Source of the DNA: a virus
Taxonomy: Duplodnaviria > Caudoviricetes
IMG/VR virus record: IMGVR_UViG_3300002895_000002
Location: 128,001-192,000 of that record
Length of the DNA stretch: 64,000 nucleotides
Strand: one strand, 5' to 3'
A program made the position numbers and the translations under genes. Positions 6,669 to 54,117 of the stretch are shown piece after piece. The notes below the pieces were generated by a model. That model saw only the letters and a program-made list of their open reading frames with translations, was not told the origin of the DNA and ran no database searches. Within the stretch, counting starts at the first letter, position 1. Each line of letters begins with the position of its first letter.

Positions 6669-7130
6669 ATGGCGAAGCGGGAAAAGAATCACTTCATCTC
6701 CAACGCGAGACTCACGGAAATACTTGGAGCTTGGGCAGATGAATGTCGAAAGAAGAAGGAAAAGGATGAACCCCATCCCCCTATGCCAGACGAGGTTGCA
6801 ATAGCGATTCTCCGGATGGTTGAGAAGTATGGCAGGATGTCGAACTTCTCGGGATATACCTATCTTGATGAGATGCAGTCCGAAGCAATCCTTACCTGCG
6901 TTCGCTATGCTCACAACTTTGACAGAAACAAGTCGAACAATGCTTTTGCCTGGATCACTCAAATCATCCATAACTCATTCGTTGCTGTGATCAATGATGA
7001 AAAGAAGGAAGCCCAGAAAAAGTTTGAACTCACCAAAGAACTCAACCCAAAGCTTGGAAAGTCAGACTTCCACGATATCAAACTCGACGATTCAAATTCC
7101 ATCTCAATCCCGGAAGGATTTTTGAACTAA
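6669..7130 (+). CDS. gp55: Late-transcription sigma factor
   Basis: NFSGYTYLDEMQSEAILTCVRYAHNFD..NAFAWITQIIHNSF matches gp55; synteny with gp47/gp46. Confidence 0.93.
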   Translation: MAKREKNHFISNARLTEILGAWADECRKKKEKDEPHPPMPDEVAIAILRMVEKYGRMSNFSGYTYLDEMQSEAILTCVRYAHNFDRNKSNNAFAWITQIIHNSFVAVINDEKKEAQKKFELTKELNPKLGKSDFHDIKLDDSNSISIPEGFLN

Positions 7131-14013: not shown

Positions 14014-14988
14014 ATGGCTATCATCATTGACAGCTCACACCTACTCGCCCGGTGCGTGCATGGCGGAAGAAAAGAGATTCTTGAGCGACCGGAGTATGCA
14101 GCTCACATGCTCTTCAACTCCATTCTCATGAACTCCCGGAAATTTGGAGCGTCAAAAGAGAATCCGGTTATTATGGCCCTTGACACCAAGCCATACTGGC
14201 GGTCTAAGTATTATGTCGAAAATAAGGATCAGTTCGTTGAATACCGGACCAACCCTAAGTATCAAGCATACAAAGGTCAGCGGGAAAAGGACGATACCTT
14301 ACCATGGGAAAAAATCTACGAGGTGGCTAATGCCTGCTACGCTGCGATTGAACAATATTCCGATTTCCATGTTGTTGGAGTCATTGGAGCAGAGGCCGAC
14401 GATATTATCGCTGTCGGAGCAAATCACTTCTCAGAAAAAGGACAACCTGTCACTGTCGTATCTTCCGATAAGGACTTCCAACAACTCCACAGACCAGGAA
14501 GAGGAGTCCAAGTCTGGGATCCAATCAAAAAAACCTTCAGACCAGACATTGACCCGGAGTATTACAAAAAGTTACACGCGATCTCTGGAGATCCCGGAGA
14601 TAACATTCTCCCTATCAAAAGAGGAGCAGGTCCAAATACAAAAACAGCTGAACGATATGCTCGAGACCTCGATACTTACCTTGCTACAGACGCAGAGCTC
14701 AGAGATCGTTACAAATTCAACAGAACACTCACAGACTTCGATTATATTCCCGTTGAAGTATCCAGTCGCATAGTTGAGGCGATTGAGAACCATACCTACT
14801 CATTCTCTGCAATGGACTTGATGAAAGTTTTCATTAAATACAGGCTCAATGCAATTGGTGAGAGAGTTCAGGAGTTTCGCCTTCCTGAGAAGACACAAGT
14901 CAAAACCAGCACCAGTGCGAAGGTATACAAGGAAGCCGCAAAGCAACAGCAGGTACTCAACAACACATTGGAGGATTTTTTCGGCTAA
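14014..14988 (+). CDS. rnh: T4-type RNase H / 5'-3' exonuclease
   Basis: AEADDII, SSDKDFQQL, GDPGDNI FEN/5' nuclease motifs. Confidence 0.92.
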   Translation: MAIIIDSSHLLARCVHGGRKEILERPEYAAHMLFNSILMNSRKFGASKENPVIMALDTKPYWRSKYYVENKDQFVEYRTNPKYQAYKGQREKDDTLPWEKIYEVANACYAAIEQYSDFHVVGVIGAEADDIIAVGANHFSEKGQPVTVVSSDKDFQQLHRPGRGVQVWDPIKKTFRPDIDPEYYKKLHAISGDPGDNILPIKRGAGPNTKTAERYARDLDTYLATDAELRDRYKFNRTLTDFDYIPVEVSSRIVEAIENHTYSFSAMDLMKVFIKYRLNAIGERVQEFRLPEKTQVKTSTSAKVYKEAAKQQQVLNNTLEDFFG

Positions 14989-15167
14989 CAACGACCTAGA
15001 ATCCAACCTTCAGGTTGAGTGTTTTCATTATATAACCCACATTCTTTGTTATATGGATTATTATACCAACGTTTTCCTGAAGGTATTCCTTTGTTATGTG
15101 CTGGTCTTCCTTTTCGTGTATTTTGATTCTGTTCGATGATACGGTCGTAGATAGATTGATAATCCAT
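14985..15167 (-). pseudogene. Internally deleted HNH/NUMOD homing endonuclease (mini element)
   Basis: N-terminus MDYQSIYDRIIEQN nearly matches 53867 (MDYQAIYDRIIERN); keeps PAHNKG and KRWYNN..PEGWILGR motifs; no HNH domain. Confidence 0.7.
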
Positions 15168-15178
15168 GACAGTTCCCC

Positions 15179-15270
15179 TATAAATAGATGTGACAGGGAC
15201 AGCAGGGAAGTTCCCCTCTCCGTTGGTTGTGGTGGTCAGACCCAACCTTACCTGTTCCCTTTTATTTATC
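15179..15270 (+). ncRNA. Candidate structured RNA (three-way junction) between convergent late promoters, copy 1
   Basis: TATAAATA (+) at 15179 and TATTTATC (-) at 15263; P1 ACAGG/CCTGT, P2 CAGC/GTTG, P3 GTTG/CAAC; homologous to 53885-53970 with compensatory changes. Confidence 0.55.
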
Positions 15271-15297: not shown

Positions 15298-15483
15298 ATG
15301 AATGTGATGTGTAACGCAGATCCCAAGACTAGACCTAGACATTGTTGTCAACGCACCAACCTTTGTTGTGTTTTCTGTCTCAAGATTAAAGACTGTTTTG
15401 CTGAAGCAGAAGCATGTAAGATTCAGAAACCATGTGACGCGGATTGTAACACTGTTGATGATCCGTGTCCGTTCGCAATCTGA
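15298..15483 (+). CDS. Cys-rich microprotein
   Basis: 61 aa with 11 Cys, downstream of a late promoter. Confidence 0.5.
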   Translation: MNVMCNADPKTRPRHCCQRTNLCCVFCLKIKDCFAEAEACKIQKPCDADCNTVDDPCPFAI

Positions 15484-20209: not shown

Positions 20210-20223
20210 ACATAACCATCTTA

Positions 20224-20265
20224 TATAAATAGATATACTCATATTGACAAAGAGGATCTATTTAT
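20224..20265 (+). promoter_or_regulatory. Late promoter within a hairpin covering the HEG start codon
   Basis: TATAAATA at 20224; perfect 10-bp IR ATAAATAGAT (20225)/ATCTATTTAT (20256) overlapping ATG 20264; AGAGGA RBS inside. Confidence 0.7.
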
Positions 20266-21346
20266 GCGAAATGTTGTTAAAAACACAATTCATCGATGGA
20301 ATAAGACGATGGATTTATCGCAGTATTCCATCGATGAATTGGAGGAATTCTTACAAAAAAAATTATATTGACTTTCCGAGAAATGTTAGGTATAATATAG
20401 GAAAGTGGATTGGTTCAGGGAAACCATTATCTGATTATTCTATTGCCGCAGCAGCACAACATCGGTCTGTCTTTTCTACTACCTATATTGCAGAGAAAAA
20501 TAAAAGGTATATAGAAAGTCTTCCGGAAAATGAAAAAAAGATACGGTATAAAAAATCATGTGAGAAGGGGCAAATAACACGAAAAGAGAGACACGGTTCT
20601 ATTTCCGAATCTTATCGTAAAGGGTTAATCCTAAAGGGCCAACGAACCGCATTACTATTAGGAATAACCGACACATTGTCTGATACTGAATTATTGTCTT
20701 TATCCGGTTACCAAAAGAAAAATAATTACCAGTTATTAACGGAAAGTGAAAAAGAGAAAAAAAGAATAGCCTGGAAAAAACAAATCTTAAAAATACCAAT
20801 GTGTTTGAAATCATCATTTCAGAATATCCCATTTTTTCAACCGTCGATGTGAACCAGTTGTCGGATGAAGAAATAGAAACCTGGTATAGATGTTACCGAT
20901 CAATAATGTCTATTAGAAGAATGAACAATAAACATCATTCTTATGGGAGATCAGGTCATTATTATTCTAGTAAAACACGAAAGAAACATTATTACAGATC
21001 ATCATATGAATTGAAGTTACTACAAATTCTAGATGAATTTGAATTTGTGATCGATTATATGACAGAACCGTACCACATTACATTAGACATAGGAAAAAGA
21101 TATGTTCCCGATTTTGTGATTGAAACTAAAAATGGTCGAATAGTAGTTGAAGTAAAACCAACGTTTAAACTAAAAGAATTTCTCGAATCTAAAGGTTATC
21201 AATTATTTTCTCAGCTATCCAATTTCGTTATTATGACCACCGAAGAAATAGACCAAGGAGAAGAAAATGTCAGATCCCAGATTGTTGAATATACAAAAAA
21301 CGTCAGATCGCATACCAGCGAGCTACAGATCAGAAAAAACGATTGA
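20264..21346 (+). mobile_element. TnsA-like PD-(D/E)XK homing endonuclease between the intein halves (two frameshifts at A runs)
   Basis: YRSSYE...YVPDF...VVEVKP; frames switch at A8 (20355-20362) and A7 (20757-20763). Confidence 0.72.
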
Positions 21347-53000: not shown

Positions 53001-53123
53001 GCAGTTCCTCCGCCTCAGGTTGTGGTTCAGGGTGGGTCCAGCAAGGACACCGGGCCTATAGTAATCAGCAGTGGGGATAATGAAACCAGTGTATCATCAT
53101 TATATCGATATATGCGTGGATAA
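50040..53123 (+). CDS. Tape measure protein with a putative muralytic domain
   Basis: 1027 aa; coiled coils, Gly/Ala-rich segment, NLRNNNPGNIR motif; follows gp26/gp51. Confidence 0.8.
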   Translation: MAKNTLRASDLDTSKMNQTVAQQLLKAMQDVAAETKEVKTAMQDQVKIVNKSNQALVALGGASSDAKAHISAFGKKFKGMLDRGEESFGEALNRIKDDATLSSKAKKKLLDEELTFQKQYIKSRDKVFKIELDQFKQKQKYHEWEKAWNKKELKRRKVERLIEEKEWKRKKNRWLEETRRHNRDEEYYQQYQKRENQKKRDELEGKQHLFGKWGKALLQGHGPDKKKGFGGIVSQATQDYGSYGKLKLASVLGMHTMALVFKTPLFTMMATGWDRHLKEREVAARELDQYNEQLMREEFDRNERNQIREDEIQKRELEKGEYELKAARKRIDEENESLAFKKKILEHEWENVLEEKKLTQYKKIKRNQTSRTAEKEVEKVVLELPAHAAGGTMAGGPAIVGEKGPELVEGKKGAFVMTTTNLVRNLTKLNNGFGGIMSTVGRKQEPGKIFGSLAGRLLAKPMSLLNTLPAIKKTEDQQLIVLKAIQKGIADLKPKAAGPAAWVDTDKKAGGGAISLIKDLITNPEKVAAGMWAGSKILGTIGATKLGGKVLGKIGLGGFGAGAGAAGGAAAGAATGVAGKLGLKAGARLIPGVGIIASGLLSGGAALSKGEGWGAALGKGALSAVGTGIGQLLTGGIGGGVAGGLVGDYLGDMIFGKSAEASVEPTKGNELLDQKKKGNLQEEAYKAMIDLRDMGLPALMSMGQNADIQQKEALTVATGMKGSGPTPTELHAPPEENIVSPIVEDEKLSVWKRIGSWFGGGQAASTQLTPTVGGTAGGSRFVEIGGERRIGGTKNLRNNNPGNIRMSDHARKYGATTKDADGFAIFPTMKAGEDAQRDLLFKSNLGTSSPYGKGKAYKDKTIEEAIYTYAPPTENRSRQYADAMIRKMGGNRKLSDLSPQEQEYLRQSIADYEGKVMPRIEKATAAAPPGNNTGMNLTTKAVTKKKMMDASRVKEQAKAAYNNADTTIMAAVAAQKKAAEKKQPINVAVPPPQVVVQGGSSKDTGPIVISSGDNETSVSSLYRYMRG

Positions 53124-53867
53124 TCTTCGTTTATGTGCTTCACTCATTTTACGGCGAGTTTCATCAGAAATTGGCTTTCGGTTTCTAGCTGATTCATTTA
53201 GTTTTTGTTGATGCTCAACAGAACGAGGTTTGATTGGTTTTCCTTTTTTTGATTCACTTAGTTTTCTTCTATGTTCATCTGTTCTGGGTTCAAGTTTTCT
53301 ACCTTTATTTGATTTTGATATTTTTCTTTTGGTTTCTTCAGAATGGGAAAATCCTTCTTTGGATTTTTTCATTCTTTCTAATGTTTCTTCAGACATTTTC
53401 TTACCTCTTCTAGCATTTCCTATCTTTGCTTTAGTTTCTTCTGTATGTTTATTGATTTTTCCTTCTTCTTTCCTTTTTACCCAAGCATCTTTTAGTTTTT
53501 GTTTATGGTTTTCTGATAATGGGCGTTTCATTTTATTTTTACTATCTTCTGTGTGATTATAATTCAGTCTCAACCAAGAGTAATCTTTAGAATTATATCT
53601 ACCATTTGATGACATCATTTTGAGTGCCATTGCTGTTTTATACCCCTTTTGTCCATTGTTTCTGTGTATTCTGGCTAAAAGCAGATGAGCAAGGAAGTGC
53701 TCACGTAAAGGAAGGTTGACTCTGTTCCATGAGCCATGTATATCTTCTATTCCATCAATTCTTGCGAACGACTTAGGAATAATATGATGATCTTCAGTTT
53801 GCTTCTTGATTTTGGGAGTGTTACGATTGCGTTCGATGATACGGTCGTAGATTGCTTGGTAGTCCAT
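53100..53867 (-). mobile_element. Free-standing HNH homing endonuclease with NUMOD3 repeats
   Basis: EDHHIIPKS..NRVNLPLREHFLAHLLL; repeated H(S/T)EETKxKI modules; AT-rich; antisense to the tail operon. Confidence 0.88.
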
Positions 53868-53884
53868 GACGGTTTCTCCTTACC

Positions 53885-53970
53885 GATAAATAGATGTGAA
53901 CGGGGACAGCAGTTTCTCCACTGTTGATCGTCTACGCCAATAGCGATCTAACCCGTCTCATATATTTATC
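53885..53970 (+). ncRNA. Candidate structured RNA (three-way junction) between convergent late promoters, copy 2
   Basis: GATAAATA (+) and TATTTATC (-); P1 ACGGG/CCCGT, P2 CAGC/GTTG, P3 ATCG/CGAT. Confidence 0.55.
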
Positions 53971-53994: not shown

Positions 53995-54117
53995 ATGGAA
54001 AATATAGATCCATTAGAAAATGTCAAGACAGAAATCAAACCGGACACTCCAGTCAAACCTAAAGAAAAGAAATCTTCTGGGTTGACTAGATTTAAGAAGT
54101 TTATCAAAAGAGGTTGA
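53995..54117 (+). CDS. 40-aa hypothetical microprotein
   Basis: MENIDPLENV...FKKFIKRG; abuts the gp48-like start. Confidence 0.45.
   Translation: MENIDPLENVKTEIKPDTPVKPKEKKSSGLTRFKKFIKRG

Follow-up and report, generated by a model that had tools for sequence, protein, structure and literature searches.

A covarying three-way-junction element beside phage homing endonuclease genes carries a loop complementary to the adjacent Shine-Dalgarno sequence

Two copies of the element and their surroundings

The window analysed here, 64,000 nt in length, corresponds to positions 128001-192000 of a 213-kb virus record (labelled G000). It harbors two copies of a structured element of about 88 nt, at 15179-15270 and 53885-53970, where the first-pass annotation had located them and with the sequences that it had given. 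They share a 5' pattern of 26-27 nt, which occurred twice in the window and in none of 100 shuffles. As had also been proposed, two inward-facing motifs of the TATAAATA type, both carrying ATAAATA, flank a three-way junction composed of the helices P1, P2, and P3.

Copy 1 (G000 143179-143270, + strand) consists of a left arm, the junction, and a right arm, and it scored 95.2 bits (E 2.9e-20) with a covariance model (R1) that we built from six copies. The left arm, TATAAATA at 15179-15186 (+), is an exact match to the consensus of the T4-type late-promoter motif and reads rightward; judging from the geometry of T4 late promoters, a + strand RNA is predicted to start about 6 nt past this arm, immediately 5' of P1. 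P1, identified by covariation, pairs ACAGG (15193-15197) with CCTGT (15251-15255) on the + strand. It encloses the P2 hairpin (CAGCAG...CCGTTG with its loop, 15200-15225, +), the P3 hairpin (GTTG + GGT / ACC + CAAC, 15226-15246, +), and the linker CTTA (15247-15250, +), which precedes the 3' strand of P1 and is invariant apart from the variants described below. The right arm, GATAAATA at 15263-15270 on the minus strand, is the late-promoter motif for the nuclease-gene transcript. The P2 loop at 15209-15217 (AGTTCCCCT) repeats 15171-15179 with 9/9 identity, and the latter stretch is the complement of the Shine-Dalgarno (SD) region of the adjacent nuclease gene (AGGGGAACU, minus strand).

This gene (14985-15167, minus strand) is a decayed HNH-type homing endonuclease gene of 60 aa. 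Comparison with full-length paralogues revealed that the N-terminal MDYQSIYDRII and the C-terminal tail are kept and that the HNH core is missing. The earlier description of an antisense HNH gene at both copies thus holds for copy 2, whose gene is full-length, but has to be amended for copy 1. The element of copy 1 is intact despite the decay of its gene, with a perfect inner (left) arm and a perfect match between loop and SD. Copy 1 is set off from the RNase H gene by a terminator-like hairpin with a T-run (15004-15017, +); this hairpin lies right after the RNase H stop codon, within the antisense nuclease remnant, and may end transcription from both directions. Immediately downstream of copy 1 is a 61-aa open reading frame with 11 cysteines (15298-15483, +), for which there was no Pfam match.

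Copy 2 (G000 181885-181970, + strand; R1 89.5 bits, E 7.2e-19) has the same organization. Its left arm, GATAAATA at 53885-53892 (+), is late-promoter-like with the first base off the consensus, and its right arm, GATAAATA at 53963-53970 (minus strand), is the late-promoter motif of the nuclease gene. On the + strand, P1 pairs ACGGG (53900-53904) with CCCGT (53952-53956), the P2 hairpin CAGCAG / CTGTTG has an 8-nt loop (53907-53926), P3 is ATCG + CTA / TAG + CGAT (53927-53947), and the linker before the 3' strand of P1 is CTAA (53948-53951). The loop at 53912-53919 (GTTTCTCC) repeats 53872-53879, the complement of the SD region of the nuclease gene (GGAGAAAC, minus strand), with 8/8 identity. 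The gene itself (53100-53867, minus strand) encodes a full-length HNH-type homing endonuclease of 255 aa with NUMOD3 repeats (Pfam NUMOD3, E 3.1e-18), and it overlaps a converging 1027-aa glycine-rich gene by 24 nt at their 3' ends (53100-53123). Copy 2 is followed by a 40-aa lysine-rich open reading frame (53995-54117).

Sixteen copies of the element were found in the 213-kb record, all on the + strand (covariance model search, E 1.6e-22 to 6e-8). Each lies 3-20 nt from the start of a minus-strand nuclease gene, ten of HNH type and six of GIY-YIG type. All 16 nuclease genes are antisense to their neighbors, the other genes being on the + strand. Besides the 60-aa remnant at copy 1, decayed nuclease genes of 14 and 29 aa accompany copies elsewhere in the genome; the elements at G000 61311 and 101143 stand before broken genes.

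The window encodes a homologue of gp55, the T4 late sigma factor (6678-7031, +; 32% identity over 119 residues, E 8.8e-16). There are 27 occurrences of TATAAATA on the + strand, compared with about 7 expected, and they usually stand 10-25 nt before a ribosome site, while 11 of the 14 genome sites on the minus strand are outer (right) arms of these elements. In the nuclease sense, the sequence of the right arm is TATAAATA or GATAAATA in 16/16 copies of this genome. In the inner arm, the ATAAATA heptamer is preserved in 15/16, as it is in copies of other genomes that have no gene downstream in that direction. The two motifs face each other at a distance of about 75 bp, and by analogy with T4 both transcripts would start 1-2 nt before P1. 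Several ordinary late promoters on the + strand (G000 24487, 150295) are located in the loop of a hairpin with the SD of the gene in its 3' arm, which is the arrangement of the T4 soc/e type.

Most copies in this genome are followed by the start of a + strand gene 16-70 nt downstream. This proximity, together with the terminator-like hairpin at copy 1, makes it reasonable that the inner promoter feeds host genes in this genome, as the first-pass annotation had suggested. The suggestion does not hold generally: in about 12 of 31 copies of other genomes, the nuclease gene has the orientation of its neighbors and the inner motif points back into the upstream gene. For example, an 803-aa gene on contig L093 ends 6 nt from the element, and the inner motif that faces this gene is still intact. 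No intrinsic terminator was flagged after the element on the + strand, so that a discrete small RNA is not indicated.

Not every nuclease gene of this phage is preceded by a junction. A plain 10-bp hairpin (ATAAATAGAT ... ATCTATTTAT, 20222-20266, +) stands before a nuclease-like open reading frame between pieces of nrdJ. Its 5' arm carries the late promoter, its loop the SD, and its 3' arm the ATG, which is the classical T4/Aeh1 design; the hairpin is probably related to the three-way-junction element as a simpler form. At G000 98424-98480, an HNH paralogue on the minus strand, which shares 60% identity with that at G000 102658, is preceded by only a short ATAAATA...TATTTAT hairpin and by no junction. 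Plain late or late-like promoters and short leaders were seen at three + strand paralogues (G000 25563, 120107, and 211949).

Covariation and distribution of the family

The search with R1 beyond the two window copies, which the first-pass annotation had called for, revealed a family: the 16 copies of this genome and at least 37 further distinct copies on uncultured phage contigs. Scanning of IMG/VR contigs with a degenerate pattern and then with the model yielded 31 further distinct copies from many metagenomes, and a metagenome scan added at least five new ones. Four other phage records of about 200 kb and one 64-kb record have 2-5 copies each, on both strands. Among the 185,579 GTDB species genomes, 80 pattern matches were scored and only one passed the model, which indicates that the pattern alone is not what the model recognizes and that the family appears confined to phage sequence. 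The one passing copy (L170:7598-7687, +; 9-nt match between loop and SD) lies on a contig of 26.7 kb that was assigned to the bin of an uncultured Smithella MAG and is most likely a phage contig in that bin. Searches of the loci and the element against 50,697 phage records by megablast and blastn gave no match in cultured relatives. The phage has no close cultured relative; its RNase H shares no more than 28% identity with the proteins of cultured T4-like phages.

The fold that had been drawn from the two window copies, with P1, P2, P3, a GA linker, and a CTTA or CTAA linker, was borne out in both, and P3 could be extended by its inner three base pairs. P1 is compensatory between the two copies (ACAGG/CCTGT versus ACGGG/CCCGT), as is P3 (GTTG/CAAC versus ATCG/CGAT). 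Single-sequence folding with ViennaRNA gave a clear three-way junction for copy 2 on both strands (z about -4.3) and a weaker signal for copy 1 (z about -1.7). In alignments fitted to the model, standard pairs occupied 96.8% of cells among 19 distinct homologues and 95.6% among 31, and 13 of 18 pairs showed changes on both sides in each set. Sliding of the 3' partners by 1-3 columns reduced pairing to 30-55%. Covariation was seen in 4/5 pairs of P1 and in 7/7 pairs of P3. Model-fitted alignments are biased towards the model; hence, we separately aligned 32 sequences with MAFFT and folded the alignment with RNAalifold. This run, which was not fitted to the proposed structure, recovered P1, P2, P3, and an outer stem, with 15/25 pairs compensatory. 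We conclude that the covarying three-way junction claimed in the first-pass annotation is real.

The strands of the junction are nearly invariant: GA between P1 and P2, none between P2 and P3, and CTTA before the 3' strand of P1. The last is rarely replaced by CTAA, and copies of other genomes have a few other variants. The third pair of P2 is almost never of Watson-Crick type, being G.U in 37, A.C in 5, and other in 5 of 47 distinct copies. A target-site duplication around the conserved 27-nt block was also considered and is excluded by the pairing and covariation of this block with distal strands.

Rfam 15 gave no match at the gathering threshold in the 64-kb window and none at E<=1 in four element loci, a check that the first-pass annotation had called for. 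The catalytic core of the hammerhead ribozyme has CUGANGA and GAAA in the junction. No self-cleaving ribozyme core was present in the element: on the + strand its junction consists of GA and CUUA, with no bases in the third connection, and on the minus strand of UAAG and UC. No ribozyme model matched. Nothing in the sequence suggests self-cleavage of the element.

As regards mobility, homologues of the genes flanking copy 2 abut in the two distant relatives G001 and G004, with neither nuclease gene nor element between them. The 40-aa open reading frame after copy 2 is also missing at these empty sites. The flanking proteins are 31-35% identical, and the comparison fits with the element travelling with the nuclease cassette. 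The mobile cassette of the first-pass annotation is supported insofar as the element is tied to homing endonuclease genes and is probably part of their cassette. The element is an abundant phage RNA or DNA-encoded structure that is absent from Rfam and tied to homing endonuclease cassettes.

The loop copy and the acting strand

The P2 loop contains a direct repeat of the stretch adjoining the inner arm on the outside, where the complement of the SD of the adjacent nuclease gene lies. The copy is 7-11 nt long and differs between elements (for example, AGTTCCCCT, GTTTCTCC, TTTCACCTC, GTGACTCC, and ATTCTCCC). About 50 of the 53 distinct copies obey this rule; the remainder are three low-scoring model hits that lack a nuclease gene. 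At G000 21279, the inner motif is lost and the match is kept, which counts against the antisense model given below. The match score was 7.55 for cognate and 4.96 for non-cognate combinations, and 0/10,000 permutations reached the observed total (p<1e-4). Close relatives track each other at single bases: the loop at G000 30347 ends in CCTGG with CCTG upstream, and that at 101143 in CCTAG with CCTA upstream. The calculated energy of the RNA duplex between loop and SD was -13.2 kcal/mol for cognate pairs, compared with -7.5 for non-cognate pairs and -9.1 for the generic 16S tail, and the loop:SD duplex exceeded the 16S tail in 41/44 cases.

The match has been retained through the replacement of every P3 pair and most P1 pairs. 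Two separate 8-mers that stay identical to this extent, beyond linkage or common descent, imply selection for a shared complementary partner, and since the only available complementary sequence is in the transcript of the other strand, the partner should be there. These sequence comparisons suggest that the loop match serves antisense control of the nuclease genes. They lend strong, though indirect, support to the antisense idea of the first-pass annotation, in which the loop match had not been noticed. Pairing of the loop with the SD of the downstream + strand gene was also considered and is excluded, because the rule holds where no + gene follows. A leader peptide from CUG codons after the SD copy in the loop was rejected, as frames and stops differ between copies 1 and 2 by eye.

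The element could instead be a bidirectional cassette of late promoters and stabilizers, which provides paired 5' ends for both transcripts and in which the identity of loop and SD has no function. Convergent firing would then cause transcriptional interference or give rise to RNase III-sensitive duplexes. Such a cassette fits the putative starts just before P1 on both sides, the short distance to the + gene after most copies of this genome, the separation of copy 1 from the RNase H gene by the terminator-like hairpin, and the intact elements at decayed nuclease genes. A functionless repeat, however, would diverge along with the stems, which is at odds with the permutation result, and the invariant GA and CTTA bases of the junction suggest more than a generic stem. 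We regard this explanation as distinctly improbable.

Still less probable, and in our estimation very far from likely, is a role at the level of DNA as a cruciform, a recombination site, or an operator bound by the nuclease. There is a precedent in I-TevI, which represses its own late promoter via an operator resembling its homing site (PMC2988022), and the pairing potential of the element is equal on both DNA strands. Against it, the variable parts conserve pairing and not sequence, and the sole variable part that is matched in sequence tracks the ribosome site and not the target gene. One conserved core serves unrelated enzymes of HNH and GIY-YIG type, and on this ground we set aside an operator for nuclease autorepression.

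The strand on which the structure acts was addressed by several comparisons. The first-pass annotation had assigned the RNA to the + strand from the G.U pair in P2, which forms on this strand only. This pair is present in both window copies, but five of the 47 copies counted above have it on the other strand, and the assignment had one wobble site as its basis; minimum free energies showed the minus-strand core to be more stable in 31/43 copies (Wilcoxon p 0.005). On the other hand, differences between loop and SD copy are directional: the loop has T where the upstream copy has C in 8/14, and the reverse occurs in 0, an asymmetry that amounts to only about five independent events. T in the loop with C upstream keeps a G.U pair only in the duplex of a + strand loop with a minus-strand SD and thus counts for the + strand. 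At least three of these events either lie beyond the SD core or give the loop the stronger SD, and hence selection on SD strength does not explain them. The evidence on the acting strand is conflicting, with the G.U site and the direction of the T/C changes in favor of the + strand and the folding energies in favor of the minus strand.

The more stable minus-strand core speaks for the alternative that the nuclease-sense RNA alone matters. The junction would be a structured 5' leader that stabilizes the late mRNA, the second SD in the P2' loop a ribosome standby site or decoy that tunes translation in cis, and the inner ATAAATA merely the 3' arm of a hairpin, P0, in read-through transcripts, following the T4 paradigm. 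The inner arm could indeed be nothing but the strand with which the true promoter pairs in a hairpin. Elsewhere in this genome (20222-20266 and G000 about 98424), nuclease genes follow hairpins of the P0 type alone, whose 5' arm contains TATAAATA, and many copies of other genomes are in a read-through context. Conservation cannot separate the two readings of the inner arm, since an invariant promoter heptamer would make its hairpin partner invariant as well. The seg43(25) gene is likewise reported to have a stable hairpin just upstream of an unsequestered ribosome-binding site (RBS) (PMC2988022). A standby site or decoy, however, needs only SD-likeness, which leaves unexplained the base-for-base identity, including spacer bases, through the turnover of P3. 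The predicted unpaired probability of the SD was about 0.45 in late and about 0.35 in read-through RNA; comparison of the two nuclease-sense RNAs gave no consistent change in RBS sequestration, the SD lying 0-6 nt outside the outer stem. Moreover, this genome has no upstream nuclease-sense gene for read-through, yet the inner arm is kept in nearly all of its copies. We consider a leader acting in the nuclease sense alone unlikely, though the most credible of the alternatives weighed here.

Known systems and a putative antisense mechanism

The nearest described structures are the leader hairpins of T-even phages with an embedded late promoter, namely those of I-TevI, I-TevII, I-TevIII, and segB, and that of mobE in phage Aeh1 (PMC2988022). 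In these leaders as in the element, a homing endonuclease gene is immediately preceded by a structure with a TATAAATA late promoter in its 5' side. The late transcripts of the T-even leaders begin within the structure, and the same is predicted for the element. In the T-even leaders, the 3' arm sequesters the RBS, whereas the RBS of the element is outside the structure and not consistently paired. The T-even nuclease genes are part of longer early or middle transcripts of the same sense; in contrast, the 16 genes of this genome are antisense, with same-sense placement in about 12/31 copies of other genomes. The element further differs in its covarying three-way junction with invariant bases, its second inward motif, and its loop that copies the RBS region. 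The hairpin of seg43(25) in Aeromonas phage 25 is very stable and directly upstream of the nuclease RBS, which is unpaired (PMC2988022); it is set apart by its description, in which a three-way junction, a match between loop and RBS, and family-wide covariation are not reported.

Dassa et al. (2009) described hairpins in the 5' UTRs of free-standing endonuclease genes of marine fractured genes; these hairpins contain TATAAATA and a pair of conserved motifs complementary to each other, and they are found with various nuclease types and host genes (PMC2677866). This description, as distinct from the motif sequences themselves, fits P0/P1 of the element, and the hairpin may correspond to the outer portion of this element or to a sister element. 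The passages of that report dealing with the hairpin present it as a simple translational hairpin before co-oriented nuclease genes and mention neither a junction, covariation, an opposing promoter, nor a match between loop and SD.

In RNA-OUT/RNA-IN of IS10 and art200 of IS200, the enzyme of a mobile element is held in check by the element's own antisense RNA, transcribed from an opposing promoter, and the antisense stem-loop pairs with the 5' end or the RBS of the mRNA (PMC5006887, PMC4513863). A loop complementary to the RBS of the enzyme, as in the IS10 type, is what the loop rule describes for about 50/53 copies. The antisense RNAs of IS10 and IS200 overlap the RBS, whereas that of the element would start downstream of it, with the anti-RBS sequence as a displaced copy in the loop of a scaffold. 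Antisense RNA linked to a homing endonuclease has a precedent in a T4-like phage: CfrI of cyanophage S-PM2 overlaps and is co-expressed with such a gene (Millard et al., 2010, via PMC2984593). As described there, CfrI is about 225 nt long, antisense to both the nuclease gene and psbA, and found at a single locus, and that account reports no conserved fold or RBS-matched loop. The sequence comparisons suggest regulation of an antisense type, with the junction, its covariation, and the loop-SD rule setting the element apart from these nearest systems.

The following model would accommodate these features. The element would be a portable module that controls free-standing homing endonuclease genes, of both HNH and GIY-YIG type, in a clade of distant T4-like phages, built from two inward T4-type late-promoter motifs around a three-way junction of about 66 nt. 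From the outer motif, the nuclease mRNA would be made with the junction as its 5' leader. The inner motif, located between this leader and the nuclease SD, would direct a + RNA beginning at P1, the complement of the leader. As this antisense RNA presumably starts downstream of the ribosome site, it would be unable to cover the site directly; instead, it would display the copy of the anti-SD sequence in its P2 loop, which would pair in trans with the RBS of the cognate nuclease mRNA and hold its translation down. In this genome, where the nuclease genes are placed backward, the same + promoter may also restart late transcription of the next phage gene. We give about even credence to the central step, a + RNA from the gene-side late promoter whose P2 loop pairs in trans with the ribosome site of the nuclease mRNA. 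A little more tentatively, we propose that the element acts as a re-programmable riboregulator, a conserved scaffold shared by cassettes of unrelated nuclease families, in which the P2 loop is a guide of 8-11 nt that is rewritten for each nuclease RBS, such that 16 nucleases would each be throttled by a cognate trans-acting RNA.

To our knowledge, restraint of selfish homing endonucleases is described only for a few T-even genes, either by hairpins that sequester the RBS or by autorepression. The mechanism proposed here would be a third solution, portable across nuclease families, and its logic would be unusual in that an antisense RNA unable to overlap its target carries a matched copy in a loop. 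It would also represent a natural modular translational repressor composed of a scaffold and a guide, and the loop-SD rule offers a cheap and direct experimental handle by means of compensatory mutations. The element itself constitutes a new and abundant structured RNA family with clean covariation, fit for an Rfam entry, and it is a practical marker of nuclease cassettes and their remnants in phage metagenomes.
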